The translations under genes were made by a program, and so were the position numbers. This document shows positions 1 to 44,831 of a stretch of 64,000 nt of DNA, piece by piece. This DNA is from Minisyncoccota bacterium (GTDB lineage Bacteria > Patescibacteriota > Minisyncoccia > Phycocordibacterales > DATDWN01). A model generated the notes under the pieces. It was not told the DNA's origin. It did not search any database and saw nothing but the letters and a program-made list of their open reading frames with translations. How positions within the stretch are numbered: the first letter of the stretch is position 1; the number at the start of each line of letters is the position of its first letter. The stretch spans positions 304-64,303 of the forward strand of contig DATDWZ010000008.1 of assembly GCA_036517295.1 (NCBI GenBank), read 5' to 3'.

Positions 1-240
1 GTTCGAACAATTCCTCGACCAGAGCCTTCGCGACCTCCGGAGTCCGCGCTTTAGAGCGCAGAGAATCTGTGAGCGACCGTTCTTCTTCAAGCAGCGTGCG
101 TTTACGGCTCTCGAAATCTTCCTTGTTGAGAGTGCCGTCAACGAACGCGTCGATGAGACGGGTCAACCGCATCTGTATCGCGCCGATTTGCGCTTGCAAA
201 TGTGACTTCCGCTCGTCCTCACTCGCGTCGTCCTGCCGCT
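1..240 (-). pseudogene. Fragment of a large serine recombinase coiled-coil region (partial, runs off window start)
   Basis: Minus-strand translation of 1..240 gives ...QRQDDASEDERKSHLQAQIGAIQMRLTRLIDAFVDGTLNKEDFESRKRTLLEEERSLTDSLRSKARTPEVAKALVEELFE. This heptad-like coiled coil is typical of the C-terminal part of large serine recombinases. Its N-terminal side would lie where the + strand fragment sits, so it is a remnant or rearranged. Confidence 0.35.
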
Positions 241-242
241 GA

Positions 243-730
243 ACGGAATACACCTGCCAGAAGTGTAAGAACAAGATTCCGGCCGCTGACCTCGAAACCG
301 TGTTCCGGGAACAGCTCAAGGAATTCTTCCTATCGTCCGAGGAGCTGACCAACTACCTCGAACAGGCCGACGAGAAGGTAGTGGAGAAGCGCGAACTCCT
401 GGGAACCCTGGAGACGGACCGAGCGACCGTCCAGGCCGAGATGGAGAAGGTCTACAAGCTCTACGTCTCGGACCAAATCAGCGCCGATGGGTTCGGCCGG
501 ACATACAAGCCGCTCGAAGAACGCCTCAAGGCGCTCGACGACCAGCTCCCCAGGCTCCAGGCCGAACTCGATTTCCTGCGCATCAAGAACCTCTCCCGTG
601 ACGAAATCGTAAGCGAGGCCCAGGACCTCTATGGCCGGTGGTCGGATCTCCTGCCGGAGGAGAAGCGCCAGATTATTGAGAACGTGGTCGACCGCATCAC
701 CATCGACCTTTCATACGTTCCCTCTCCCTC
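243..730 (+). pseudogene. C-terminal fragment of a large serine recombinase (zinc-ribbon CxxC plus coiled coil); N-terminus missing
   Basis: The frame opens right after an in-frame TGA at 240-242. It reads ..TCQKCKNKIPAADLETVFREQLKEFFLSSEELTNYLEQ...RLQAELDFLRIKNLSRDEIVSEAQDLYGRWSDLLPEEKRQIIENVVDRITID, the recombinase zinc-ribbon/coiled-coil tail. It is oriented head-to-head with the minus-strand fragment at 1..240. Confidence 0.45.
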
Positions 731-756
731 TGAAATAGCCACAAAAAGGCAACGCG

Positions 757-792
757 ACCACACCCCTGCGTTGCCTTTTTGTACGGCGACCA
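757..792 (+). terminator. Putative intrinsic terminator hairpin (aggcaacgc/gcgttgcct) followed by TTTTTGT
   Basis: 9-bp GC-rich inverted repeat with a 12-nt loop and a T-tract. It lies inside the six-frame ORF 300..1214, which argues that ORF is really two genes. Confidence 0.4.
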
Positions 793-1214
793 TGAGAACC
801 GAACGGAAGCCAGAGGGATATCCCAGTGTTCTCAATAACTTAGCGGACCATTTGAAGAAGAGAATCCTCGACCTCGGAACCAATCAGAAAGAGGCGGCGA
901 GGCAGATTGGCGTCGGGACCGGGAGCTTCACGCATTGGATGAGAAAACACCGCAACCCGACCATTCGTCGCTGGCCGAAGGTCATCCAGTTCCTTGGATA
1001 CGACCCACGGCAGGCGTCGGAGGGCATCGGACAGGGCCTCGTTCGATGGCGACAGGGCAGAGGGATGTCACAGAAGGAATTGGCGGCGCAGCTCGACGTT
1101 GACCCGACCACGCTGGCCAAGTGGGAGCGTGGTGAACGTTGTCCGTCGGGCGACCGCCAGATGCAATGCACCATGCTCCTGTGCAATCTAGGCTTTCCGC
1201 GATTGCATCTGTAA
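792..1214 (+). CDS. Tandem helix-turn-helix (XRE-like) DNA-binding protein
   Basis: Starts at ATG 792, after the hairpin. There are two XRE-like HTH motifs: KKRILDLGTNQKEAARQIGVGTGSFTHWMRK and RWRQGRGMSQKELAAQLDVDPTTLAKWERGE. High GC. Confidence 0.45.
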   Translation: MRTERKPEGYPSVLNNLADHLKKRILDLGTNQKEAARQIGVGTGSFTHWMRKHRNPTIRRWPKVIQFLGYDPRQASEGIGQGLVRWRQGRGMSQKELAAQLDVDPTTLAKWERGERCPSGDRQMQCTMLLCNLGFPRLHL

Positions 1215-1321
1215 GCAGTTGACAATAAAGGACTTAGGAGGTACTCTAGTATTAGAAATCGTCTCGTCGGTAGGAGGAAGCGTTCCTTTTTCGAACGTTT
1301 CCTCGCTGCCTAGGAGGCGAC

Positions 1322-1525
1322 ATGCAGGACAAAGCGCAAGACTGCCTTCGATTTGAAGAACTACTTCGGCGTCTGGAACTCACAGACGACGAGGTCGATT
1401 TCTGCCTCAACCATCCGGGGGCGTGCGCGATTGGCGTACACACCCGAGAGGCTCAGACTCGGACCAGAAACGCCTTGCTGAGGTGGGTCGAAAGTCTCGG
1501 TCAACGGAGAGAACGGACCACGTAA
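1322..1525 (+). CDS. Small hypothetical protein (67 aa) with strong SD
   Basis: AGGAGG sits 7 nt upstream of ATG 1322. A terminator hairpin with T-tract lies at 1549..1572. Confidence 0.45.
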   Translation: MQDKAQDCLRFEELLRRLELTDDEVDFCLNHPGACAIGVHTREAQTRTRNALLRWVESLGQRRERTT

Positions 1526-1548
1526 CTTGCCACCGGCAGGTCCTGAAA

Positions 1549-1572
1549 GCCACCATTGCGGTGGCTTTTTTG
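1549..1572 (+). terminator. Intrinsic terminator gccacc-ATTGC-ggtggc + TTTTTT
   Basis: Perfect 6-bp GC stem, 5-nt loop, U-tract. Confidence 0.55.
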
Positions 1573-1669
1573 TGCTCTCGCGTCCCTACATCTTGCCAAA
1601 TAGACGAGACTTACCGGCGGCAGCCAAAAAAGATTCCCACGCTCGTCCAGGCCGGCCGAATATCCTTCC

Positions 1670-2806
1670 GTGAACGCCGCGCACTGTGCCATGGATGAAC
1701 ACAGCGAGCCACAGTTCAGGGACCTTGAGGAAGTCTTCGCGACCGGCGAGGACCAGGCGGCTGAGATCGCCCTCGAAAAGCTGCTTGAAATCCATGGACA
1801 CCGCGTCCGCCATTTTCTTTACAACGTCACGGATGTGGATGGCGCACATGAAGAGATATACGGAGACGCTTACGCGCAGGCGATCGACGACACGACCACG
1901 AACCAAATCACCAAGAAGAGTACCGAGCTAACGAAGAAGGTCATCACAGACAAGCTCAGACGCAGCTTCCAGGACGAACTGGTCGGCCTGGAATTCACCC
2001 ACCTCGCGGTTGAGATCCAGGCAGCGGGCGGCGCGAAGGGTGCGCTCCTTCACAAGCTGGCTTTCAGTAATGCTCCTGGCGTCACCGTCACAGATGTTCT
2101 CAGCGAGGGCGAATCGCGGGCCCTGTCCCTTGCGGCGTTCTTGACCGAATTAAGCACGGCCCCGACAAAGGCCGGGATCATATTCGACGATCCTGTGTCC
2201 TCATTGGATCACGTCTGGCGGGAGCGGATTGCCAAACGACTCGTGGCGGAAGCGAAGGACCGCCAGGTCATCGTCTTCACGCACGACCTGTTTTTTCTTC
2301 GAAGTCTGCTCGCAACATGCGACAGAGAATCTGTTCCGCTTCAACATCAGTACGTTCGCCGCGATGGCCAGGCTGGCATCTGCTCACCTGACCTCCCGTG
2401 GGTCGCGATGAACGTGAAGAGCAGAATTGGCGTCCTCCGACAGCGCTGGCAGGCGGCCGACAAGCTCCAGAGAACCGTGGGAAACCAAGCGTACGAGCCT
2501 GCTGCCCGCGAAATATTTGGTCTGCTTCGCGAGGCCTGGGAGCGTGGCGTGACCGAAGTCCTGCTCAATGACGTCGTCGAGCGTTACCGCCCTGCAATTG
2601 AAACGAAGAAGGTCGCGATTCTGCACGACATCACGAATGCGGACTGCAAGGCAGTTGATGATGGGATGGCAGAGTGCTCGCGGTGGATGCGTGGACATGA
2701 CGAGTCGATGGCAGACGGGACGCCGTTTCCGACGCCGGCACAGCTTAAGACAAGGATCGACGAACTTGAGGGCTGGGCAAAGGGCATTCGAGCCAAACGG
2801 ACCTGA
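1670..2806 (+). pseudogene. 5'-truncated PrrC/RloC-like ABC-type ATPase with C-terminal HEPN-like domain (no Walker A)
   Basis: ABC signature LSEGESRAL, Walker B IIFDDPVSSLD (D-loop) and H-loop VIVFTHDLFF are present. There is no GxxxxGK[ST] anywhere in the 378 aa. The C-terminal domain contains SRWMRGH (an Rx4H HEPN-type motif). The fold assignment is an inference. Confidence 0.45.
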
Positions 2807-2925
2807 GTCGACGGGTGGCACTGGCCGCACATCAGGCTGCTTCGCCACGGCCTGCTAGGCCATGCCGTGGTCAGCTTGCCGTCGTGATGGCCGCGTGAAG
2901 ATTGTTCAGGCGTTCAAAGCCGCAT

Positions 2926-4074
2926 TTACTGCCAAGGCCACGCGCCTTTTGCGGCGAACCCGAGAAGCACAGCCGCGGCTCCCCAAAGTACCGCCCTGTT
3001 ATGGACAAGTCTCAGGCTCACGGGGTCGTGTGTGGCGCGCACTAGAATGGGCAACACTGCGCGGTCGACCACAAGTACCACAGCCATCACTAGAGTTCCG
3101 AATGGGATTAGGGTTACGTAAAGATTCGATTCCGCTGCTATCGAAAGTGGAGCAGCAAGGAACTCGACAACGCCCGAAGGTATGGGCAGCACACCATTCA
3201 TGGCGAGCATCAGGGGAATGCGCGGCAGGATGTTCAGGGCGACAAGTAGACCAAGACTTGAGACGATTAGGCCGAATGCTCGCCACCTGCTCGATCTCGA
3301 TGCTCGCGTGAGAATCCGTCGAAAGACAGCGATGACTGCGAAATCTGCAAGGGCTCCGATGAGCCAGCCAGGAAGAAGTGGAAGTAGGACCGCAGGCGAG
3401 GTTACGAAAACATACTTTGTGGTGCTCGTAGGCTGTGAGCCGACCTCGATAGTGAACCAGCCGCCGATGTGGACCGCGAATGGGGAAAACAACGGTGAGA
3501 ACGACGCAAATAGAGTCAAGCAGATTAAGAGAGCCAAGGTCAGATTCTGAAGCGCCCTGGCGATGATTAGCCAGAACCGTCTTGTGGCAAAGACAGTCAC
3601 AACAAACGTCGAGGCGAGTATCGCCCCGGCCGCGCTGAGGAAGAGCCCGGCGACCTTCGCTGATGCTCTGGTGATCTCGCTTTGCACTATGCCGCGCAGA
3701 AATTGAAGGGGCTCGCCGTCTGTGAAATCATCCGGCGACAATAAGAACGCAATAGCGTACAAACCAACACCTTCTGTGACGAGCACTGACGACAGTGACA
3801 GAAGGAGCGCGGCATTGAAGGCGCGTCGAGACCATATGGTTGGGCCATAGACCTTATTGAGGAGGAGCGTTCCTATCGAGGCAAAGCCACGCATCCAACC
3901 TAAGTGACGGTTCGTTGTTGTTGCGCGGACTTCGGCAAGTCGGAGCCACCAAGTCTCCAGCGAGCTTTGGAGGACGCCTCGTTCGTCTGGGAACATGAAT
4001 AGGGCGATGTAAATCAGCAATAAAGCTGCACATAGTGCGAGACCCCGAAGAACGACCTCGGCTACGAGCAGCAT
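2926..4074 (-). CDS. Polytopic integral membrane protein, function unknown
   Basis: 382 aa with about 10 hydrophobic segments. High GC. No recognisable motif. Confidence 0.55.
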   Translation of the reverse strand: MLLVAEVVLRGLALCAALLLIYIALFMFPDERGVLQSSLETWWLRLAEVRATTTNRHLGWMRGFASIGTLLLNKVYGPTIWSRRAFNAALLLSLSSVLVTEGVGLYAIAFLLSPDDFTDGEPLQFLRGIVQSEITRASAKVAGLFLSAAGAILASTFVVTVFATRRFWLIIARALQNLTLALLICLTLFASFSPLFSPFAVHIGGWFTIEVGSQPTSTTKYVFVTSPAVLLPLLPGWLIGALADFAVIAVFRRILTRASRSSRWRAFGLIVSSLGLLVALNILPRIPLMLAMNGVLPIPSGVVEFLAAPLSIAAESNLYVTLIPFGTLVMAVVLVVDRAVLPILVRATHDPVSLRLVHNRAVLWGAAAVLLGFAAKGAWPWQ

Positions 4075-34597: not shown

Positions 34598-34915
34598 TCC
34601 GGTGTAGCTCAGTGGTAGAGCAATCGCCTGTACCGAAAGGTTGTGCAGCTTCCTAAAGTAATTTAGGATGAAAAATGAGGTGAATTCGGGGAACCCCACA
34701 GTTTAATAGCTGAGGGCAATCCCGAGCCAAGTCCCGAGAGAAATCGAGGGAAAGGTGTAGAGACTATCTCGTAAGAGAGTAGCCGTCACGCAAGTGAGTA
34801 GGCGAAGCGCCCCACATCCCACTCAGAAATGAAGGATGATGATATAGTCCAGACCAAAGGCAACTTTGGATAAAATGTAAGCGATTGGTCGTAGGTTCGA
34901 TCCCTACCGCCGGAG
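34598..34915 (+). tRNA. tRNA-Asn(GUU) interrupted by a group I intron in the anticodon loop (exons 34598-34631 and 34878-34915; CCA not encoded)
   Basis: Acceptor tccggtg/cgccgga (U1-A72, G73 as in Asn). D-arm gctc-agtggta-gagc. Anticodon stem atcgc/gcgat with loop CUGU|UAA after splicing. T-arm gtagg-ttcgatc-cctac. 5' exon ends in U; intron ends in G. Confidence 0.7.
34632..34877 (+). ncRNA. Group I intron (IC3-like, tRNA anticodon-loop type), ~246 nt
   Basis: Conserved core strings AAUCCCGAGCCAAGUCCCGAGAG (cf. AAUCCUGAGCCAAGCCGAAG), AAGGUGUAGAGACUA (P7; cf. GGUGUAGAGACUA) and UCGGGGAACCCC. Ends with omega-G. Confidence 0.7.
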
Positions 34916-36562
34916 CAATGGTCGTGAAAGAGGTATAATTTGCCTCTGTCGTGGCTTTACCAGGGACTTTTTTGAGGTTCGAAAATGATTTCGAGGCTCC
35001 GGAAGTTCCACAAATGGTTGAGAACTCGTTTTTAACAAGGAACCGCCAGCCGTAAGGGTTTTGGTGGTTTTTTGTGCTTGTTCGAAAGTTTTCTCTTGAT
35101 CTAGTCGTTGCTGTACTCTTTCCGCAAGTTTCTGAACTGGAGTTTTCATTGTCGGAGTTACTTCTTTATCTGTAAGTATTAAGTTCGAAAAGATATGACT
35201 CAAAAGTAATCTTCTGTCTTCGGGAGACCTTTTCTCGTATATCTCTCTTGCTCTCCTAGCAAGGTCAATTATATTCAACCAGATTTCAAAATACTTTGCT
35301 TCTTCAGTCTTAATCCTACCAAGTTGTTCTATCACAGCATTTTGCTCTTCTATTATTTCCTTATTTTTTATCTCCCAACGCTCTCTTGTAATTCTCTCAT
35401 CAAGACGGTCATCATATACGTTATCTAAACGTCTCTGTAGTGAGCTGTAGCGGTCGTTAAGCCCCTTGATAGCACTTTCCTTGTACTCTATCTCTTGGGC
35501 GTGGTTTTCCTTAATTTTAACCTTAATTTGCTCTGCCTCTTCTGGTGTTATGGTTTCAAAGAACTTAAAGACTCCAAAGAGTTTGTCTTCGAGTTCCTTT
35601 TCCGGTGCATACTTTTTCTGAGAGCAGTTTCGGTAATGATTGCAGTGATAATAGACTATTCCTTTCTGTATTTCTGCCGTAATAGTCCCACTACATTCTC
35701 CACAGATAAACATTTTTCTAAATTGAAACTCGTGGCGGTTAAAGTGAGGAGTCTTTTTACCCATTCTAATATCTCTAACCTTTTCAAATAACTCTTTGGT
35801 GATAAGGGGTTCGTGAGACCCATTACTAAAAACCTCATCATTCCATTCCATCGCTCCATAGTAAAAAGGATTATTAAGAATACTCTCAATAACACTTTTT
35901 ACCATCTTCTTACCAGATCGAGTCCGAAATCCCTCTTTGTAAAACATCTCAATCACGGCTTTCATAGAATAGTTACCAGAACCATAAAGTTCAAACATCC
36001 TTTTTACGAATGGAGCGATTTCTTGATCTATTATGTGTGTTTTATGTCCCTTCTCACCAATGGTTTTATATCCGAGTGGAGGTTTTGTTGGTAACCACCC
36101 TTGAGCAAGTTTTTCTTTCTGACCCTTTTTTACCTCTTCAGATAGATTTGAAATAAACTTCTTAGCTAGAACTATTTCAATATCCCAGCGAAACTTTTCG
36201 TCAGATTTAGCGTTCTTATGGATAATCAGATTTTGCTTAACAAAATGTATTTGCCTAGAAACATCTCCCTCAACCCAATCGTTAATCGCTAGTGCTTCCT
36301 TGAAGTTGCGAGTAAGTCTATCTACTTTCTCACAGAGTAATATATTTACTTTATTTTTTTCCAAAAACTCTAACATTTCTGCAAAAACCACTCGTTGTTT
36401 TGCACCACTTGCTGACTCTGCAATCGAAAAGACTTTTATCATCTGAAAATCTTTTCGCTGAGCATATTCCTCCATAAGTTTAACCTGTGATGGCAAAGAA
36501 TAACCTGTTTCTTCTTGTTCTTTTGATGAAACTCTACAATAACTAACTGCTTTTATTTTCAT
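34904..36562 (-). CDS. Large serine recombinase (resolvase catalytic domain + recombinase domain + zinc ribbon + coiled coil)
   Basis: YCRVSSKEQ catalytic Ser motif. Recombinase domain. CGECSG...YYHC zinc ribbon. Long coiled coil. The 3' end overlaps the tRNA-Asn 3' end. Confidence 0.85.
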   Translation of the reverse strand: MKIKAVSYCRVSSKEQEETGYSLPSQVKLMEEYAQRKDFQMIKVFSIAESASGAKQRVVFAEMLEFLEKNKVNILLCEKVDRLTRNFKEALAINDWVEGDVSRQIHFVKQNLIIHKNAKSDEKFRWDIEIVLAKKFISNLSEEVKKGQKEKLAQGWLPTKPPLGYKTIGEKGHKTHIIDQEIAPFVKRMFELYGSGNYSMKAVIEMFYKEGFRTRSGKKMVKSVIESILNNPFYYGAMEWNDEVFSNGSHEPLITKELFEKVRDIRMGKKTPHFNRHEFQFRKMFICGECSGTITAEIQKGIVYYHCNHYRNCSQKKYAPEKELEDKLFGVFKFFETITPEEAEQIKVKIKENHAQEIEYKESAIKGLNDRYSSLQRRLDNVYDDRLDERITRERWEIKNKEIIEEQNAVIEQLGRIKTEEAKYFEIWLNIIDLARRAREIYEKRSPEDRRLLLSHIFSNLILTDKEVTPTMKTPVQKLAERVQQRLDQEKTFEQAQKTTKTLTAGGSLLKTSSQPFVELPEPRNHFRTSKKSLVKPRQRQIIPLSRPLLRR

Positions 36563-36818: not shown

Positions 36819-37091
36819 CTAAACGTCCTGTTTTAAAGAACAAGTTTTACCTGATGTCCTTATAGCAGGTTTGTTATCTAAATTGTCTTCCGTTTGCGAC
36901 ACGGGCTCTCTGGGGTTGGTCAAAGAGCTTGTGTCGATAACCGAATATTCGTTTTTCTTATCTTCGTAATCAAACCTTGATAACAAATCAAAGAAAGACG
37001 CCAACCCATTTATTTCTTCTCCGCTCAAAATTGAACTAACAGATTTTTCTGTATCAACTTCATTATTAAAGTTTTGAGATTTCACTGTCAT
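36819..37091 (-). CDS. Hypothetical acidic protein (90 aa)
   Basis: ORF only. Lies between the recombinase and the RM genes. Confidence 0.3.
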   Translation of the reverse strand: MTVKSQNFNNEVDTEKSVSSILSGEEINGLASFFDLLSRFDYEDKKNEYSVIDTSSLTNPREPVSQTEDNLDNKPAIRTSGKTCSLKQDV

Positions 37092-37099
37092 TTCAATTT

Positions 37100-37140
37100 T
37101 TGATAAACAAAAACACCACCCTTTTAGGTGGTTAATTTAC
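37100..37140 (-). terminator. Intrinsic terminator downstream of res (accacc-cttttag-ggtggt + U-tract on minus strand)
   Basis: Hairpin plus TTTTTGTTT on the minus strand. Confidence 0.5.
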
Positions 37141-37287: not shown

Positions 37288-39699
37288 CTAGAACAAGTCC
37301 TCAAACGGTCTCCATTCCTTACTGTCATTTACTGACTGTCTTTCCCTAAAGGAATACTTCGGACTATCGTTGTAATACCAAAGTCCTGCTTCTTGTACCG
37401 CAATACCACCTACAAACTTTTTACCAAATTGCTTGAGCTTAGCTTGCAATGATTTTGCCTTATCAGCGGTATCTGTACTTGTTGCGGTATCTCCTTTCTT
37501 CGTATCAAAAATACCTATACGACCATCAGAGAAGCGAATAATCCAGTCAGGATAAAACAGGTTTTCTTCTTTTGTTGATGAGTTTGTATATTTAATGCCT
37601 AGATAGTTTTTTCCTTGATCGCCGTTTTTGAACCACCAATCAATCTTCCCTTTTTTCTTTTCCAAGTACTCGACAAAAGCAATTTCATTTTTGCGTCCAT
37701 TATAATCTTCTAATAAGTAGAACTTGTCTAATACACATAACTTTTGAGGGACAACCTTATAATCTTCAGGATACCGATATTCTTCTTGTATAGTAAAAGT
37801 ATATGCTTGCTGTTCTTCTATCTTCTTTTTCTTGTCAGTGAGTAAACTATCTGAAATTGGTTTGTAAGCTCTAAGTGCCTTTGTTATTGCCGGACGAAAC
37901 TTACTTTCAGTACCTTTACGAATATCTTTAATAAATATCTTGTACCAAAAAATATGGTCATCAAGTAAAACTGTCTTAAACCAAACACGAAGTGCTTGTT
38001 TTAACACTGACCAAGAACGAGCTATGTTAGAGTATCTAGCTTTGTCGTCTTCTTGTTCTTTCAAGATTTGGTAACAAAGATAGTTGAATGTTTTTTCAAC
38101 ATCACTCACTGACATTTCAAGAGAAACATCACTACCTTTCTTTTTGAAATCAAAAGCAAGGTTATCGTAGTCCTCAAAACGAGCATTGGCTATAACTTCA
38201 TTTACTAAAGTATTACTAAGATCCAGCCCTGCCTTTTTTAATTTTATCTCTGATTTACCTAAAATATCTTTCTCACTAATACCAAAATGCTTGTTTAATT
38301 CTATTCTAAAAACTTTTTGGAACTCTGAAGATACACGAATATCTCCGTAATCTAAGCGAGAAATATAATCAGAAGGCAACTCTATATTACTTATTCCTTT
38401 TTTTATATGTGCAGTTTCTGTAAGAGCTTTATTCGCAGGGTTTTGATCTGGTATTACTACTTCCTTACGCTTATAGTTTGTATATAGATAACCCAATCGG
38501 AGGTTAGGATTATTTTTGTAATCTTCTTTTGCTTGAGGTTCAGGCATTCGCAAAATACGCCCAACAGTTTGAGTATAAAAAGTATTTGATTGTATCTCTC
38601 TAAACATCACAAGTACCGATGCACGAGGACAGTCCCAACCATTACCAGCAGTTTGTTTGAAGATCAGAAAATCGTGTTCATCGTCATTTTCTTCTAGCCC
38701 CTTCGGTTTATCTTGTCCCTTAGACCATTTTGCAATTTTATGTTCAGGTACTTTCATTCTAACAAGATAATCTGTAACAATTTTTTCCTTTGTCTGTTCG
38801 CCTTTTTCTATTAACTTACTGTCGTCATTCGGTATTTGTATTAACATTAAAGGATTTATTTCTTTCCCGAGTGCCTTAAGTTCAGCTTTTAATTCTTCTC
38901 TTTTATTTATTCCATTTTCAAGAAGAACTCTATCAAGGTCTTTACCGGACATACCCTTAAAATCTTCATCTGTTTGAGTAACAATAGCTTCTTTTATTAA
39001 ACCTTGATCAACCACTTCTTTTCTTGGGACTTCATAATAACTACCAAGACGGCGAGCATCCAGTTCGTCATCTCGGTTTGGTGTAGCTGTAATGTGAAGA
39101 ATTACCTTAGGATCAATCATCTCGATAATATCCTTTGCGAGCCTCGTGTCTTTGTTTTTATGGGCTTCATCAATAACTAAAATAATCTGCCTGCCATCAG
39201 CGTGTGTTTGCTCAATTACATCCTCAAAGTATTTACCCGTTTCTTTTATCCACTCTTCATCTTCAGGACGGCGAAGTAATCTTGTTTCTGCACTTTTAGC
39301 AGTAACTTTTTGCCAATTCAAAAACAAAATATCATTTTGATATAGTTTGCCTTGATTTATATCTGCAACAGTCAAAGCTCTGTTTTCAAGCATATTTTCA
39401 AAATACTCAAGAAACTTACCTTTACTTTGCATAGCCAAATCATCACTGAAAGTAATCCAAATAAATGCCTTGTCTTCTTTCCATTGTGGTAAATGATTAA
39501 GGCCACGAATAAAGAGTGAGGTCATAAAGGTTTTACCGCTACCAGTTGGCGATTTGAAAACAATAGGTAATTGTCTGCCTTGTTGTTTCCATATCGCTAC
39601 AAACATATCTGTAAGATTTTCTACAGCAGTTTTTTGGAATTGTAATGGATTAAATGTTTTCATATTAAATAATATTGTATATTTGCTTGTATACCTCAA
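37288..39699 (-). CDS. res: Type III restriction enzyme Res subunit (SF2 helicase + C-terminal PD-(D/E)xK endonuclease)
   Basis: KSPTGSGKTF (motif I), LVIDEAHKN (DEAH), ITATPN (motif III). C-terminal PDWIIRF...IGIFDTKKG nuclease motif. Confidence 0.85.
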   Translation of the reverse strand: MRYTSKYTILFNMKTFNPLQFQKTAVENLTDMFVAIWKQQGRQLPIVFKSPTGSGKTFMTSLFIRGLNHLPQWKEDKAFIWITFSDDLAMQSKGKFLEYFENMLENRALTVADINQGKLYQNDILFLNWQKVTAKSAETRLLRRPEDEEWIKETGKYFEDVIEQTHADGRQIILVIDEAHKNKDTRLAKDIIEMIDPKVILHITATPNRDDELDARRLGSYYEVPRKEVVDQGLIKEAIVTQTDEDFKGMSGKDLDRVLLENGINKREELKAELKALGKEINPLMLIQIPNDDSKLIEKGEQTKEKIVTDYLVRMKVPEHKIAKWSKGQDKPKGLEENDDEHDFLIFKQTAGNGWDCPRASVLVMFREIQSNTFYTQTVGRILRMPEPQAKEDYKNNPNLRLGYLYTNYKRKEVVIPDQNPANKALTETAHIKKGISNIELPSDYISRLDYGDIRVSSEFQKVFRIELNKHFGISEKDILGKSEIKLKKAGLDLSNTLVNEVIANARFEDYDNLAFDFKKKGSDVSLEMSVSDVEKTFNYLCYQILKEQEDDKARYSNIARSWSVLKQALRVWFKTVLLDDHIFWYKIFIKDIRKGTESKFRPAITKALRAYKPISDSLLTDKKKKIEEQQAYTFTIQEEYRYPEDYKVVPQKLCVLDKFYLLEDYNGRKNEIAFVEYLEKKKGKIDWWFKNGDQGKNYLGIKYTNSSTKEENLFYPDWIIRFSDGRIGIFDTKKGDTATSTDTADKAKSLQAKLKQFGKKFVGGIAVQEAGLWYYNDSPKYSFRERQSVNDSKEWRPFEDLF

Positions 39700-41350
39700 G
39701 GATTGGTTGCGGTATTGTTTTGAGATTTATTTTTTTGTTATCTTCAAAATCAGCAATTTCAACTCTTTCTTCCCAACTAAACATATAAACTGTTACTGGT
39801 TTTTTAAGTGATAGGACTTCTTTTATAAACTCATCAAGTTTGTTTTGTTCTTCTCTGAAATATACTGCTGTCATTCTATCTTTGTTTTCAAACACTTGCC
39901 AATAATCATTTTTCTTTACTTGCTCTAGCGTATTTTCTGCGATTGCGAGCATTTCACCTGCGTGATGAGCTAGTAGTATTTTGTCTTTATCATCTGCATC
40001 AAGAATGTTGTGCTTACCAACAAAAGCAGTTTTGTAAAACTTAACTGATTGAAACAACCCACCTTTATCATTATATCCAGTAATGGCTGTTTTAATTCTT
40101 GGTAAACAAATATCGCTCATTATGTTATTTTCGTTGTCGGTAACTAAGATAAATTGCCTTGAACCTTTTGTGTCTTCATCTTTATTTAATTGCATAACAG
40201 CGTGTCCTGTTGTTCCTGAACCAGCAAAGAAATCTAAAACAATTATATTATTATCAAAATGGTTTAGTAATTCTCTTATTAGTTTAGTAGGTTTTACTGT
40301 GTCAAAACCGTGTTCTTTACCAAGAATTAAAGATAACTCTTTTTTACCGTCTTCAGCTGTATCAACTTGTTCTTTAAGCAGAAGCGACCAAAAAGGTCTT
40401 TCAATGGATTGATTTTCGTCTTCAGGATAGATAATTTTTTTTACTTTCCCTTCCACTATAATTATTTTATCTTCTTCAATTAAGCGATTAACTTCCTGAA
40501 GTCCAATTTTCCATCTTTTACCCGTTTGTGGAATAACACCTAAGATTGGAAACTTCATAGTATCTCTTTTCTTTCTTCCTATATCTGAGTCCTCAATATC
40601 AACAAGACGAGCTAGTCCTTTTTTAGTTTGAAAATTATATTTTCTTTGACCTTGTTCTTTTAGGACAAAACCTAGATATTTTTCTTTTGGTATCGCATTA
40701 CTATAACAAAGAATGTATTCTATGTTTTGCTGTATTTGATATTTTGCCTTACCAGAATTAACTGGTTTGGTTTTATTCTGCCAATTAAGGATACCCAGCA
40801 ATGAAGTTTCGCCAAAAATACTATCAGTAAGAAGTTTTAATTGTGCAAACTCGTTATCGTCAATACTTATGAAAATAACACCGTCTTTCGTTAGAAGGTC
40901 TTTGGATAACTCTAACCTCTTTCGCATAAAAGAAAGCCAGTAGCTATGACGAAAAGGGTGGTCTTTTGGCACATCTGTTCCATCAGGATATTTATCTAAA
41001 ATCCTTTTATCTTTATAACGAAAACCGTCTTCTCCTGTGTTGTACGGCGGGTCAATATAAATAACATCAATCTTGCTCTTATGTGTGTAATTTAAGCAAG
41101 TAAGTGCGTGGTAATTATCACCCTCAATAAGTAGGTGGGTGGGTTCGGTATCTTTACTTTTAATTCCTTTTGTGGGTACATCTTCAAGAATTGGTAGTTT
41201 ATTTTCTACATCATCTTCAAAACCTTCAGGCACATCAAGCCACACTAAACCATAGTGTTGTGTTTTTACAGCTTTTTTCCATTTCTCAATTTCTTTTTCA
41301 AGCTTGAGAATGTGATTTTCTTTTTGTTGTAGTAATTCTTTTTCAGTCAT
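39665..41350 (-). CDS. mod: Type III restriction-modification Mod subunit (N6-adenine DNA methyltransferase, beta class)
   Basis: YIDPPYNTG (motif IV) lies upstream of FFAGSGTTGHAV (motif I). Overlaps the res start. Confidence 0.85.
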   Translation of the reverse strand: MTEKELLQQKENHILKLEKEIEKWKKAVKTQHYGLVWLDVPEGFEDDVENKLPILEDVPTKGIKSKDTEPTHLLIEGDNYHALTCLNYTHKSKIDVIYIDPPYNTGEDGFRYKDKRILDKYPDGTDVPKDHPFRHSYWLSFMRKRLELSKDLLTKDGVIFISIDDNEFAQLKLLTDSIFGETSLLGILNWQNKTKPVNSGKAKYQIQQNIEYILCYSNAIPKEKYLGFVLKEQGQRKYNFQTKKGLARLVDIEDSDIGRKKRDTMKFPILGVIPQTGKRWKIGLQEVNRLIEEDKIIIVEGKVKKIIYPEDENQSIERPFWSLLLKEQVDTAEDGKKELSLILGKEHGFDTVKPTKLIRELLNHFDNNIIVLDFFAGSGTTGHAVMQLNKDEDTKGSRQFILVTDNENNIMSDICLPRIKTAITGYNDKGGLFQSVKFYKTAFVGKHNILDADDKDKILLAHHAGEMLAIAENTLEQVKKNDYWQVFENKDRMTAVYFREEQNKLDEFIKEVLSLKKPVTVYMFSWEERVEIADFEDNKKINLKTIPQPILEVYKQIYNII

Positions 41351-41352
41351 AT

Positions 41353-41526
41353 TTATTTTGTGCTTGCTTTTTTTAAGAATGCTTCAAACTCAACTTTCGC
41401 TATCCGATACTCTTTGCCTATTTTATATGCCTTGAGCTTTTTTGCATCTATGTAGCGATAAATGGTCATAATGTTCAGGCCAAGTTTTTCTGCTAAATCA
41501 TTTGCTGTGTAAAAATCTTTATTCAT
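41353..41526 (-). CDS. Excisionase-family / MerR-like HTH DNA-binding protein (57 aa); possible controller of the RM operon
   Basis: MNKDFYTANDLAEKLGLNIMTIYRYIDAKKLKAYKIGKEYRIAKVEFEAFLKK is the Xis-family HTH pattern. The stop is 2 nt before the mod ATG, and the ATG overlaps the upstream gene's stop. Confidence 0.6.
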   Translation of the reverse strand: MNKDFYTANDLAEKLGLNIMTIYRYIDAKKLKAYKIGKEYRIAKVEFEAFLKKASTK

Positions 41527-42005
41527 TGTAATTGCTTAAGGTTTTTATAATACTGATCAACTTTTTTAGACCAATTTGGGTAAAATTGTTCCCAAGTAGG
41601 TATAACACTCACTGGTAATTGCCTCATCGGTGTTTCTTTGTGTTGTTGACTTTTTCTTCCGAGTGTTTTCATCCATATTTCTTGTGAATGTTTTATCAAT
41701 GGAGCAACCACCTTGCTTGGGATAATCCAGAAGTCTGGCTCTTTGTTGAATTGATTGAGGCGAACAAAAGCATAATAGAAATCATTAGACGCTCCATTTT
41801 CATCCTTAGCCGAAAGTATAAAACTTTTTGCAGTTTCTCTGTAAGCAGTTTTTATTGAAAGTTTTATAGCTCTACCGTCTGGACTCAATGCTAAAATATC
41901 ATATTTTTCAGCTCGTCCAAGCGTAAGGGTAGCAATGAAGTTTTCCGCTGAGAGCCGAGAAGCTATGTAGTATTCTCCTGCGTTACCGATATTTTGTTTT
42001 TGCAT
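41523..42005 (-). CDS. Hypothetical protein, possible PD-(D/E)xK-like nuclease fold, first gene of the HTH-mod-res operon
   Basis: GNAGEYYIASRLSAENFIATLTLGRAEKYDILALSPDGRAIKLSIKT resembles the Mrr/Hjc-type E..VA..L..G...D(i)la...K.xVK core. The fold assignment is tentative. Translationally coupled (ATGA overlap) to the HTH gene. Confidence 0.5.
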   Translation of the reverse strand: MQKQNIGNAGEYYIASRLSAENFIATLTLGRAEKYDILALSPDGRAIKLSIKTAYRETAKSFILSAKDENGASNDFYYAFVRLNQFNKEPDFWIIPSKVVAPLIKHSQEIWMKTLGRKSQQHKETPMRQLPVSVIPTWEQFYPNWSKKVDQYYKNLKQLQ

Positions 42006-42296
42006 AGTTATAATTATACTTTACTATTCTTTACAAGCCAAACTCACGAAGTGGACAACCTTATGAACACAACATAATAAAAATAGTATTGGCAGATCAA
42101 TAACCTATGATATAATTCACCCACAACTGAATAAGCAGACCTAACCCTATAGTTTTTATTATAGGTATGGTTGCAGGTCGTATAAGGCACAAAGAACCCA
42201 TCGCAGGGTCGCCTTATACGCCTTATCGGGAAACCGGTATGAGGGACTTCGGTCTCTACCTGTGGTGGGCTTTTTGTATATAAAAATAGTAAAATT

Positions 42297-43271
42297 ATGA
42301 AAAAACACTACTCCTCAAACAAGGGTTTCATACAAATACCTGTTTTATTTTTTATAATTACCGGGATAATTATTACTGGTGGTGCTGGTTATTTTGGAGT
42401 AAAAAAATATGAAAATTATCATATTACCAAAGGGAAAGAAAAAGTAACGGAAGAAATTAAACCTCAAAAAGACATAGGGGTTGAAAAATTAACGAAAGAG
42501 ACTGGGGCATCAAAAGATACTAAGCCAGATGTTAAAAAGGGGGCAATTACACCTTATGACTATGACCACCCCGAAAATAATCTTTCGTCATACCAACCCA
42601 AAATAAATGGTGCTGATGATAGTGTTTCTGTCATCAAAAAATGGAAGCCTAGAGTTGCATACATTGATTGTAAGGTTGTTTTTAATGGAAATAATATGGG
42701 AGAACAAACTGGTTCTGGGTATTTACTGGGTTACGACTCTCAAAATGGCGACATTATAATACTAACAAATCTTCACATAATTAAAGTTAATTTGTACTAC
42801 CCTGACGGTGAACCAATCGGCACATCCCTCACAGCAACTTCTTGTGATATTAAAATCCCGGGTGATACTCAGTTTGTAACAGTTTATAAAGAAGATGGTT
42901 CTTTCACTGTTTCAGATAAAGAAGATTTTGCTCAAGTAACTGTAAAAAACCCAACTCCTTATATGACTAAAACTATAAAAAGTATATCGGGTAGTAACTG
43001 TATAAGTAAAGCCGAACTGGGTGAAAGAATACTAATACTTGGTTATCCCGGAATTGGCGACCAAAATGATATAACTGTAACTGACGGAATAATATCTGGC
43101 TATGACGGAAACCACTACATAACATCAGCAAAAATTGAATACGGTAATTCTGGTGGTATAGCAATATCGCTTAAAAATAACTGTTATTTAGGCATCCCAA
43201 CTTTTGTTATTTCTGGAGAGCTGGAGTCTTTAGCAAGGATTTTGAACGTCAATGCGATATTTCCTAATTAA
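42297..43271 (+). CDS. Membrane-anchored trypsin-like (S1) serine protease
   Basis: N-terminal TM. TNLHII (His), GNSGGIA (catalytic Ser, GDSGG-like). No PDZ domain. Confidence 0.7.
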   Translation: MKKHYSSNKGFIQIPVLFFIITGIIITGGAGYFGVKKYENYHITKGKEKVTEEIKPQKDIGVEKLTKETGASKDTKPDVKKGAITPYDYDHPENNLSSYQPKINGADDSVSVIKKWKPRVAYIDCKVVFNGNNMGEQTGSGYLLGYDSQNGDIIILTNLHIIKVNLYYPDGEPIGTSLTATSCDIKIPGDTQFVTVYKEDGSFTVSDKEDFAQVTVKNPTPYMTKTIKSISGSNCISKAELGERILILGYPGIGDQNDITVTDGIISGYDGNHYITSAKIEYGNSGGIAISLKNNCYLGIPTFVISGELESLARILNVNAIFPN

Positions 43272-43663: not shown

Positions 43664-44065
43664 CTATTTTTTCTGAAACTTAGACATAAGTCGCTCAATT
43701 AACTGTTCACGGGTATAACTAGCATAGATATTATGTTCCTCTGGAGAATATGCACCGACAACTTTGAATACTTGATCTGTTGCTTTTAATCTATCGTTTG
43801 GCTTTACTTTATCATTTAACATTATTTCTTCCACCACTTTCCTAGCAGAATACTCGTCAAAGCCTAGTGCTTTTAGTTCCTCTTGTACTCCTTTTTGAGC
43901 AATAGTCTCTCCGGGCTTTTTCTTTGCTTGCGTTTTGGTATATCCTACTTTTTCCAACAACTCACTCTTATTAAGAGGTTTAGCTCTTTTAGAGTTAAGG
44001 ACTATCTCATTTGCGAGATTTTTTTGTCTTAGTGTAGATCTATTTTTGTTTTGTTTTATATACAC
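43664..44065 (-). CDS. Phage terminase small-subunit-like HTH protein (TerS/Terminase_2-like), tentative
   Basis: LRQKNLANEIVLNSKRAKPLNKSELLEKVGYTKTQAKKKPGETIAQKGVQEEL resembles the N-terminal Terminase_2 pattern. No large subunit nearby. Confidence 0.35.
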   Translation of the reverse strand: MYIKQNKNRSTLRQKNLANEIVLNSKRAKPLNKSELLEKVGYTKTQAKKKPGETIAQKGVQEELKALGFDEYSARKVVEEIMLNDKVKPNDRLKATDQVFKVVGAYSPEEHNIYASYTREQLIERLMSKFQKK

Positions 44066-44075
44066 CTTTTTTTAT

Positions 44076-44831
44076 TTAATTCTTTTTTTTACTATTTCTG
44101 GTTCTACGACTATTACTTTTTTTAGAAATCTTCTTTACAAAAACGGTCGGTGTTATATCATCTGAAACTGGTGGATTGCTGATAATCTGATCATTATCGA
44201 TTTGATTAGTTGGTGCAGGTAATTGAGAAACAGGTTTAATTCTTTTCTCATAGTAGTTGTTCAATATCTCTGGTTGAGGAGTTACAAAGTATGTAGGTAA
44301 ATAGACTGGATAACCCTTATTATTCTCATACTCGATGGTTTTTCTTAAACCCGTAATTTCCATAAAAAATGGAGCTGGATAATCAGTAATATTTGTTGTG
44401 TATATTACCGAGTTTGTAATAAAAGCTGTAGCCCCTACAATTTTATCAGCTAATGATACTTGACCCGTAGAAATACCAATTTCTTTGTAGAAACAACCTA
44501 GTCGTCCTGCAATTCTCAAAACAACTTCGTCAATTAAAAATGTCTGTACTCCATTTAATGCATTCTCAATCTTAATTTCTTCCTCTACAGAAGACTCATC
44601 AATAAGTTCAAACAAGGTAACACTAGAGATTGCAACTCCCCAACCCGGACTTACAGCAAATACACTTTTCAAGTAGTCGATTATAAGCTTTGCAACCTGA
44701 TCGTTACTTTTACTTATTCCACCTCTGCAAGCAGATGCACGTGAAAGAGTGTTGGTATCAAAAATTAAATAACGAGATGGTTTTTCATTATTTGGTTGAG
44801 TATTATTCTGCGGTGTTTGTTCTGTGTCCAT
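44076..44831 (-). CDS. PIN-like domain protein with C-terminal extension, tentative
   Basis: RYLIFDTNTL ... LFELIDE acidic pattern typical of PIN. Weak. Confidence 0.4.
   Translation of the reverse strand: MDTEQTPQNNTQPNNEKPSRYLIFDTNTLSRASACRGGISKSNDQVAKLIIDYLKSVFAVSPGWGVAISSVTLFELIDESSVEEEIKIENALNGVQTFLIDEVVLRIAGRLGCFYKEIGISTGQVSLADKIVGATAFITNSVIYTTNITDYPAPFFMEITGLRKTIEYENNKGYPVYLPTYFVTPQPEILNNYYEKRIKPVSQLPAPTNQIDNDQIISNPPVSDDITPTVFVKKISKKSNSRRTRNSKKKN

Follow-up and report, generated by a model that had tools for sequence, protein, structure and literature searches.

The Type III restriction-modification (RM) genes found at 37,288–42,005 of the 64,000-nucleotide stretch of DNA analysed here (the window) appear to lie on the cargo-bearing arm of an integrative element, which also has its own excisionase (Xis)-type helix-turn-helix (HTH) gene and an optional gene for a homing-endonuclease-like nuclease. 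We put the probability of this reading at about 0.7. The original prediction was a four-gene defence operon that acts as a single functional unit. That interpretation is not sustained by related loci, in which the HTH gene is part of the predicted element backbone and the gene for a 160-aa protein is facultative, with no link to Type III systems. What seemed to be a four-gene defence operon is recast here as a modular mobile-element architecture, with the following features in the window:

42013..42041, minus strand: putative sigma-70-like promoter TTGGCT-N17-TATAAT (consensus scan; conserved in relatives)
41523..42005, minus strand: predicted 160-aa PD-(D/E)XK endonuclease of I-Ssp6803I-like fold; facultative gene that separates the element promoter from the HTH gene
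41353..41526, minus strand: HTH_17 excisionase-type winged helix, 57 aa (HTH_17, 6e-14; TIGR01764, 1.8e-11)
39665..41350, minus strand: Type III Mod, 561 aa, beta-class N6-adenine methyltransferase (profiles and motifs)
37288..39663, minus strand: Type III Res, SF2 helicase with C-terminal PD-(D/E)XK (likely ATG at 39663; ORF extends to TTG at 39699)
37115..37132, minus strand: terminator-like hairpin and U-run downstream of res (consensus scan only)
36819..37091, minus strand: 90-aa ORF (orf90) between res and the recombinase gene, without family match
34904..36562, minus strand: large serine recombinase, 552 aa, putative element integrase (Pfam, PHROG, RVSS motif)
34598..34916, plus strand: tRNA-Asn(GTT), putative integration target (ARAGORN intron option; group I intron at 34632-34877)

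The four minus-strand genes are co-oriented, as originally described, with ORFs at 41523-42005, 41353-41526, 39665-41350 and 37288-39699, and exactly these four are bracketed by the promoter-like site (42041..42013) and the terminator-like hairpin (37132..37115). Two of the gene junctions read as predicted: the 160-aa gene and the HTH gene overlap by ATGA, and 2 nt separate the HTH stop from the mod ATG. The sole correction to that earlier reading concerns mod and res, which had been given overlapping stop and start codons. The junction is TAAtATG, a 1-nt gap when res begins at the ATG at 39663 (791 aa); an overlap, of 35 nt, requires res to start at the upstream TTG (39699). For orf90, profile searches returned no family match, and no homologues were found in related loci.

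Mod and Res form the standard Type III pair that had been proposed; Type III models of PADLOC match and the motif order fits. In Mod, an N6-adenine methyltransferase, motif IV (DPPY, residue 100) precedes motif I (FxGxG; FAGSG, residue 375), and the protein matches N6_N4_Mtase (8.5e-31) and PADLOC MTase_III (7e-74). Res, encoded directly after mod, carries the helicase motifs GSGKT (53) and DEAH (177) and a C-terminal PD-(D/E)XK motif (PD...DTK, 717-734), with matches to ResIII (1e-19), SWI2_SNF2 and PADLOC REase_III (1e-12). As in Type III systems of the EcoP15I/EcoP1I type, the two genes share a strand with mod first, and they encode a beta-class Mod and an SF2-type Res. The pair itself is ordinary; what differs is that an Xis-like gene stands on one side and a serine recombinase gene on the other, with a shared promoter. 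We regard it, on sequence grounds, as an ordinary Type III RM system that is the cargo of a putative mobile element at a tRNA-Asn gene.

The 57-aa protein had been assigned to the Xis/MerR type of HTH rather than to the XRE type, and profile searches agree, with matches to HTH_17 (6e-14) and to TIGR01764 'excise' (1.8e-11) and none to XRE. It passes the excisionase-domain cut-offs (TIGR01764, 44.2 versus 28.8 bits; PF12728, 52.5 versus 27), and its best sequence match in the PDB is the Pukovnik Xis (4J2N, E = 7e-4). Homologues with 64-91% identity occur at 86 loci, 80 from metagenomes and 6 from genomes. A serine recombinase is encoded on the same strand downstream of the HTH gene at 33 of the 40 loci with enough sequence, at distances of 0-5.1 kb (4.8 kb in the window). 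At related loci the gene right after the HTH begins within a few nucleotides of the HTH stop; across 73 loci it matches N6_N4_Mtase (24), N6_Mtase (15), Eco57I (10), C5 (5), D12 (4) or Resolvase (7). Because the same module precedes every methyltransferase class, or the recombinase directly, sequence comparison identifies the HTH gene and its promoter as the backbone module of a serine-recombinase integrative element. The protein itself is probably a conserved DNA-binding protein of that element, directionality factor and regulator in one. Three alternatives had been offered, namely a control module, an accessory effector, and an Xis that belongs to the recombinase element. The third is the best supported, and a control role may also hold, since HTH_17 directionality factors often double as transcription regulators.

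[quoted passage not shown] Apl is likewise both excisionase and regulator, and its sites, also direct repeats, have one-turn spacing (PMC7498355). The protein studied here resembles Pukovnik Xis (4J2N), RdfS and phage 186 Apl in being a small basic winged helix of the excisionase family, and resembles these and the pure regulator BldC in that its candidate sites are direct repeats in a promoter, one turn apart. It differs from the known HTH_17 directionality factors in that these are mostly partners of tyrosine recombinases, whereas the recombinase here is a large serine recombinase, and in that cargo genes sit between the xis-like and recombinase genes. Small directionality factors have precedents among serine integrases, as those of phiRv1 and TP901-1 work with small Xis-like proteins (PMC1470463).

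The 17-bp spacer of the promoter is the direct repeat TGTAAAGAATAGTAAAG, which contains GTAAAG twice with a 10-bp period and is a candidate operator. The sequence GTAAAG-N4-GTAAAGTAT occurs upstream of the HTH gene at 77 of 82 loci, either directly or across a variable 'slot' gene. At least 23 related elements have another copy of the repeat where a backbone gene begins. Nuclease genes that are not followed by an HTH gene lack the motif in their upstream region. By analogy with the proteins above, we infer that the HTH protein recognizes these repeats; the binder could instead be another small backbone protein, such as the 56-aa family. In the window the ATG lies 7 nt past the -10 hexamer (6-10 nt at 51 of 76 sites), and the mRNA is therefore predicted to be leaderless.

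The recombinase has the three domains of a large serine recombinase (Pfam Resolvase, 1e-18; Recombinase, 6e-16; Zn_ribbon_recom), a catalytic serine in the motif RVSS at residue 10, and a match to the PHROG integrase (5e-73). Its gene is located at the target junction, where the gene for tRNA-Asn(GTT) and the end of the recombinase gene overlap, the recombinase stop codon reaching 13 nt into the tRNA 3' end. ARAGORN, run with its intron option, finds this tRNA to be interrupted by a 246-nt, ORF-less group I intron (Rfam Intron_gpI, 75.6 bits). The convergent overlap of tRNA and recombinase genes recurs in L003, L017 and L027, and tRNA/recombinase overlaps are present in 11 of 18 further metagenome loci, eight of them with tRNA-Asn. 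A low-GC block extends over approximately 35-46 kb of the window. A search for an att-type repeat of the tRNA 3' end (31 nt with at most three mismatches) gave no match, and repeats of it of at least 10 nt were limited to scattered 10-mers, none informatively placed.

Sequence identity between the window recombinase and those of related cassettes is only 26-33%. This suggested a hybrid cassette with a foreign recombinase, an idea that is weakened by the common tRNA-Asn target and overlap geometry. Upstream backbone genes that are usual in sister elements are missing from the window. Given the terminator-like hairpin, orf90 and a 726-nt gap between res and the divergent recombinase, this copy may be decayed or rearranged, with the recombinase outside the transcript.

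Literature searches returned no description of this element family. Cargo-carrying islands with serine recombinases include SCCmec ccr elements, PLE-like islands and tRNA-targeting 'tycheposon'-type elements. The likeness is that a large serine recombinase lies at the edge of an island of variable cargo, integrated at a conserved target, here the 3' end of a tRNA gene. The present putative elements differ from these in having CPR bacteria and DPANN archaea as hosts and a fixed order of promoter, slot, Xis-like HTH, cargo and recombinase, with cargo that is almost always RM.

The cargo position between HTH and recombinase holds Type I, II, IIG or III systems in sister elements, and the nuclease gene is present in 16 of 87 cassettes. 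A dedicated four-component defence system, with the nuclease as a second effector and the HTH protein as controller of the Type III RM, would explain why the four genes are tightly coupled, in one orientation, and bracketed by a single promoter and a single terminator. Co-occurrence of the four genes in relatives had been proposed earlier as a check. Their order recurs identically in L016 and L022, but the closest Type III cassettes (L042, L073 and L045), among others, have the HTH gene and lack the 160-aa gene. Of these, L042 carries the Mod and Res proteins nearest to those of the window (60-68% and 65% identity), together with an HTH protein of 86% identity. The nuclease-HTH pair also precedes Type I, Type II (D12, C5) and N4/N6 systems, the HTH gene stands directly before the recombinase at 7 of 73 loci, and nuclease-positive cassettes are not enriched in Type III cargo (3 of 16, versus 10 of 71 nuclease-negative cassettes; no association). 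We consider such a four-component system very improbable, and comparison of the cassettes places the 160-aa protein outside the RM system, as the product of an optional gene.

That the HTH protein is purely an RM controller, with no part alongside the recombinase, is unlikely, although several observations suit it. About two-thirds of the genes right after the HTH encode methyltransferases, starting a few nucleotides past its stop, and, as with RM controller (C) proteins, a small DNA-binding protein heads an RM operon, and the promoter of its gene contains a conserved sequence that resembles an operator. Its best PADLOC match is mad1 (8.7e-12), the head HTH of the methylation-associated defence system (MADS), and MAD1 is also an HTH_17 protein directly upstream of a methyltransferase. 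The departures from C proteins are nevertheless consistent: the protein is HTH_17/Xis and not XRE, the repeats are direct and not inverted C-boxes, and the order is HTH-M-R, with the HTH before M rather than R. Moreover, the HTH gene directly adjoins the recombinase gene, in an operon without any RM, at six loci (L056, L062, L076, L082, L094 and L104), and its second operator-like copy is found at non-RM backbone genes. The assignment to MAD1 is opposed by a score of 27.2 bits against the NCBIfam NF047737 equivalog cut-off of 80. Unlike MADS, the HTH family is tied to the recombinase and the neighbours are Type III Mod/Res only, with no further MADS genes present.

Under the integrative-element reading, the large serine recombinase would have inserted the element at the tRNA-Asn 3' end, Mod/Res would fill the cargo position between HTH and recombinase, and the optional 160-aa gene would have landed exactly between the promoter and the HTH start codon. 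We hypothesize that one conserved promoter drives a leaderless transcript of the 160-aa nuclease, HTH, Mod and Res genes, and that copies of the HTH protein line up head-to-tail on the GTAAAG repeats, the binding mode of other HTH_17 directionality factors and regulators. The HTH protein could in this way autoregulate the promoter, and we propose that this would bring the RM genes, and also the recombinase gene in most relatives, under its control. The HTH protein may also bias the recombinase toward excision. CPR bacteria, with their reduced genomes, rely mainly on RM systems for defence. In the present case such systems would travel as interchangeable cargo within the xis-int operon of a single element family and would share one conserved promoter. 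CPR bacteria and DPANN archaea would thereby have a concrete means of exchanging RM systems. The repeats and the HTH protein also offer a candidate regulator/operator pair that is open to testing.

The Hjc/Mrr-like PD-(D/E)XK core originally proposed for the 160-aa protein can be traced as E11...D36...S50-x-K52, within the motifs GEYY (10), YDIL (35) and SIK (50-52). The sole profile match of the protein is a sub-threshold one to PDDEXK_5 (E = 0.021; 15.3 bits versus the Pfam PF11645 gathering threshold of 26.1), and 31 of 105 family representatives match this profile (E<=0.01; best 2e-8). Across the family D36 is invariant, K52 and E69 are conserved in at least 90% and E11 is kept in close relatives. 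The canonical ExK has become SxK in this protein and QxK in the wider family, so that position 50 is S or Q and not D/E. The PDB gave no match to a narrow family profile, and a broad one yielded only a marginal match to the Hjc-like ST1444 (E = 0.12), with E..D..xK aligned. In the structure model used here, built from 105 sequences, the full-length top fold match is the homing endonuclease I-Ssp6803I, and the extra C-terminal helical region matches it over Hjc (124 versus 106 aligned residues). This model replaced a first AF2 model from 28 close homologues, which had a poor N-terminus (pLDDT 73) and gave PvuII as top match. The modelled structure points to a PD-(D/E)XK endonuclease with the fold of I-Ssp6803I, whose active site is probably conserved.

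I-Ssp6803I (PF11645, PDDEXK_5), a PD-(D/E)XK enzyme, is the homing endonuclease of a group I intron in a cyanobacterial tRNA-fMet, and it and its close homologues are described as mostly cyanobacterial (PMC3384342). The 160-aa protein differs from it in being encoded by a free-standing gene and not by an intron, in its identity of about 10%, and in having SxK/QxK for ExK. When the window is compared with the nuclease-less cassettes L040-L042, the gene is inserted precisely between promoter and HTH. Its presence is scattered over the HTH tree, a weak tree built on 171 nt: the Fitch count is 15 changes for the 16 positives, where the random mean is 14.4. It also occurs without the HTH gene, either beside other RM or defence genes or beside dnaK, metG and pheT. 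In phage and plasmid collections its homologues are distant, hypothetical and confined to accessory regions. Tentatively, the most likely role is that of a free-standing homing-type (selfish) site-specific nuclease.

The protein might otherwise be a defence effector, either a minimal modification-dependent, Type IV-like enzyme or one gated in another way, that gives RM islands an additional layer of immunity. At 13 of about 30 loci the genes directly downstream of it belong to RM or defence systems (including DpnI, PLD-SNF2 with an Eco57I-type gene, and a KAP NTPase), and its domain is shared with the PADLOC candidate PDC-S36 (E = 2e-5); on these two counts a defence role fits as well as a selfish one. 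Strong purifying selection, with about 60% identity across phyla, is also in keeping with immunity. Set against this are the size of 160 aa without a reader or sensor domain, the position of proteins with 60-83% identity next to methyltransferases of unrelated specificity, the absence of defence genes at the dnaK, metG and pheT loci, and the full-length fold match to a homing endonuclease, and we regard a defence function as possible but doubtful. An Hjc-like junction-resolving or recombination nuclease serving replication or recombination of the element seems rather improbable. ST1444 is the only PDB sequence match, and the nuclease is common in reduced-genome CPR bacteria, in DPANN archaea and in accessory regions of phages and plasmids, but the gene is optional, no linkage to replication genes was seen, and the C-terminal helices favour I-Ssp6803I.

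It is a still speculative proposition that these elements are a widespread and undescribed tRNA-Asn-targeting family, hosted by CPR bacteria and by DPANN archaea, and, jointly, that the 160-aa protein founds a large clade of I-Ssp6803I-type homing nucleases that are free-standing. If so, an Xis-like HTH_17 protein with a leaderless GTAAAG-repeat promoter would be a universal expression platform in which RM of any type plugs in between HTH and serine integrase, and restriction, modification and excision/integration would be co-regulated. Homing nucleases would invade the promoter-proximal position of the element as well as other conserved loci. The analysis points to more than 1,000 representative clusters of small I-Ssp6803I-like nucleases outside introns; set beside the mostly cyanobacterial homologues described so far, this implies that the fold class may be far more widely spread.

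An association of the nuclease with the group I intron was considered and set aside as a probable coincidence, as the window intron is ORF-less and 7 kb away and none of 11 related loci has an intron. Longer relatives of the nuclease are fused to DUF6508 or DUF4268, which are uninformative partners. LOOT RNA was rejected as a partner of the nuclease: it is enriched near the nuclease gene (7 of 30 loci, versus 2 of 71), but how far away it lies, which way it points and which genes stand in between all vary. In every case a terminator-like hairpin of its own and a gene for a membrane protein come after LOOT, which is treated here as a separate feature of the island.

The four minus-strand ORFs lie exactly at the coordinates of the original prediction, which had read them as one four-gene defence operon, and they are flanked by a promoter-like site and a terminator-like hairpin:

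42041..42013, minus strand, promoter-like site on one side of the four genes
41523-42005, minus strand, PDx160, a 160-aa PD-(D/E)XK-type protein (ORF)
41353-41526, minus strand, HTH, a 57-aa HTH_17/Xis-like protein (ORF)
39665-41350, minus strand, Mod (ORF, profiles and motifs)
37288-39699, minus strand, Res (ORF, profiles and motifs), start most likely at 39663
37132..37115, minus strand, terminator-like hairpin on the other side of the four genes

PDx160 is identical to NCBI VJG67_00750 (Candidatus Paceibacterota, CPR). The junction sequences bear out the predicted ATGA overlap between the PDx160 and HTH genes and the 2-nt gap from HTH to mod. The overlap claimed for mod and res probably does not hold, because that junction reads TAAtATG, which puts the res start most likely at 39663. 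Both the profile matches and the motifs establish a canonical Type III restriction-modification (RM) pair: in Mod, DPPY (residue 100) lies ahead of FAGSG (375) and the protein matches PADLOC MTase_III (7e-74), and Res carries GSGKT, DEAH and a C-terminal PD..DTK and matches the ResIII and REase_III profiles. Mod and Res are an ordinary Type III system.

HTH homologues (64-91% identity) occur in 6 genome and 80 metagenome loci. Of 40 loci with sufficient sequence, 33 have a same-strand serine recombinase 3' of HTH, at distances of 0-5.1 kb (directly adjacent in six loci). Among 18 complete cases, 11 show overlap of the recombinase 3' end with a convergent tRNA, which in eight is tRNA-Asn(GTT), as in the window. 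The next gene begins a few nucleotides past the HTH stop in related loci; in 73 loci, its classes include N6_N4 methylase (24), N6_Mtase/HsdM (15), Eco57I-type (10), C5 (5), D12 (4) and the recombinase itself (7). RM systems thus act as exchangeable cargo, whatever their type, between HTH and recombinase. The notion of a single four-gene defence unit is not supported, given that HTH is found ahead of all methylase classes or of the recombinase itself; HTH is part of an integrative element, not of the RM system. Sister elements (related loci L040-L119) share backbone genes without a Pfam match upstream of HTH, in a ~373-aa family with 50 members (e.g. L046 4333-5472 and L055 2465-3586) and families of ~413 aa, ~56 aa and ~249 aa, which may represent replication or transfer functions of the element family.

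A 90-aa orphan ORF (orf90) and a recombinase follow 3' of res in the window, on the same strand, and the recombinase reading frame runs into the 3' end of a tRNA gene, with its stop codon 13 nt inside:

34904-36562, minus strand, large serine recombinase, 552 aa (profile search)
34598-34916, plus strand, tRNA-Asn(GTT) with a 246-nt group I intron that lacks an ORF

GC content is 33-36% across ~35 to 46 kb, compared with ~42% in the flanks, and this low-GC block with a recombinase at the tRNA end is the signature of an element integrated at a tRNA. The window copy lacks the usual upstream backbone genes (~373-aa and ~413-aa families), its recombinase is an outlier (26-33% identity to those of related cassettes, the HTH-bearing loci), and a terminator, orf90 and a gap of 726 nt stand between res and recombinase; att repeats were looked for and not found. 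The element here may be truncated or rearranged. The tRNA intron splits the anticodon between positions 35 and 36, and ARAGORN finds the gene solely with introns allowed; the tRNA-Asn genes used by related elements are intron-less.

Alignment of the closest cassettes yielded a conserved block, TTGnnnTGTAAAGnnnnGTAAAGTATAAT, a -35/-10 promoter with a 17-bp spacer formed by a direct repeat of GTAAAG (10-bp period). The block has a single copy in the window (42035..42013) and lies upstream of HTH in 77 of 82 loci, directly adjoining it in 44 and with at least one variable gene in the intervening slot in 33. At 51 of the 76 sites the first ATG comes 6-10 nt after the -10 hexamer (in the window, 7 nt), a proximity which implies that the predicted mRNAs are leaderless. 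At least 23 sister elements have a second repeat copy 2-4 kb upstream of HTH, where it precedes the ATG of a backbone gene by 3-15 nt, and this pattern suggests a small regulon with two candidate operators per element; the window lacks the second copy because the backbone is missing there. Among L040-L112 it reads GTAAA(C/G)-N4-GTAAAG (e.g. L053 2065, L049 1974 and L041 3118). A TTATCCAC-like, DnaA-box-like motif also occurs 10-25 nt upstream of the promoter -35, in the window (42052-42060, minus strand, there GTTGTCCAC) and at 27 of 73 related promoters.

The predicted Xis-type nature of HTH stands, as the protein passes the cut-offs of excisionase TIGR01764 and HTH_17; among PDB sequences it best matches mycobacteriophage Pukovnik Xis (4J2N). 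The HTH_17 proteins RdfS, BldC and Xis recognise direct repeats spaced by one helical turn, and such proteins can govern both excision and transcription (PMC11963761). Direct-repeat binding with control of excision and transcription is likewise described for phage 186 Apl (PMC7498355), and the phiRv1 and TP901-1 serine integrases have small Xis-like directionality factors (PMC1470463). From the Xis likeness and these precedents we infer, by analogy, that HTH is probably the element's joint regulator and directionality factor, binding the GTAAAG repeats. An RM controller (C) protein was ruled out, since HTH belongs to another fold class, its candidate sites are direct repeats and its gene precedes M. 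MAD1 was also rejected (27 bits against an 80-bit cut-off).

PDx160 is no component of the Type III system. The original prediction had listed it in the four-gene defence operon, but only 16 of 87 HTH cassettes carry it, and the cassette with the closest Mod and Res (L042; 60-68% and 65% identity, HTH 86%) is without it. The closest PDx160 homologues (80-83% identity; L043 and L047) accompany different cargo, and the cassettes that carry PDx160 are dispersed over the HTH tree. In these cassettes the gene fits precisely into the interval from the conserved promoter to the HTH start; in the sisters L040-L042, which lack it, the promoter directly abuts HTH, and other slot occupants include a serine hydrolase and a SHOCT-domain protein. 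The conserved motif is absent upstream of PDx160 at loci without a following HTH.

The wider family comprises 1,292 representative clusters; most of its proteins stand alone and are 145-170 aa long, with D36 invariant, K52 and E69 at least 90% conserved and S or Q at position 50. More than 300 close relatives (~60% identity) are found in Patescibacteria and DPANN archaea, and even in Lokiarchaeum. Away from the cassettes, PDx160 stands at the head of other RM or defence genes (a PLD-SNF2 + Eco57I-type system, D12 methylases, DpnI, ParB-methylase, a C5 methylase with a BglII endonuclease gene, and a KAP NTPase), and a defence nuclease is a live alternative, as is an Hjc-like resolvase. We tentatively favour a free-standing, homing-type selfish endonuclease because the best fold match is a homing endonuclease (I-Ssp6803I), insertion is precise and beside very conserved DNA, distribution is patchy and horizontal spread is wide. 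Homologues also lie directly upstream of dnaK (L024, L026), metG (L018) and pheT-gyrB (L037), with no HTH, RM or recombinase gene nearby, a placement beside conserved housekeeping genes reminiscent of free-standing homing endonuclease genes.

We propose that a tRNA-Asn-integrated element would express a leaderless operon from a single autoregulated promoter, comprising in the window an optional nuclease, an Xis-like regulator and Type III RM cargo, and in most relatives also the recombinase. The RM pair would serve in defence and probably help to keep the element stable in the host. The element is a variant within an already known class of RM-carrying integrative elements, and the Mod/Res type is likewise known; our literature searches found no description of an arrangement in which promoter, slot, Xis-like HTH, RM cargo and serine recombinase follow one another in fixed order at tRNA-Asn in CPR and DPANN organisms.

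Two further ORFs without family assignment lie in the same low-GC block (43664-44831, minus strand), one of 251 aa that starts with a PIN-like 'IFDTNTL' motif and one of 133 aa with faint HTH and RuvA-domain-like matches; neither has a counterpart in any related locus. Window positions 1-4000 have a GC content of 0.56-0.60, compared with ~0.42 in the rest of the contig, with no rRNA or other Rfam family detected there, and may represent foreign DNA or a join made in assembly.

A LOOT RNA (Rfam RF03000; 42138-42257, plus strand) lies 132 nt upstream of the PDx160 gene and divergent from it, and LOOT also occurs in L003, L007, L009, L012, L019, L022, L045 and L103. It is enriched near the nuclease gene (7/30 vs 2/71 loci; Fisher p 0.003). 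In all nine LOOT loci a terminator-like hairpin with a U-run comes next, then a non-homologous small membrane-protein ORF, in the window a membrane-anchored trypsin-like protease (42297-43271). LOOT could act as an sRNA in its own right or as a leader of membrane-protein genes in CPR islands.
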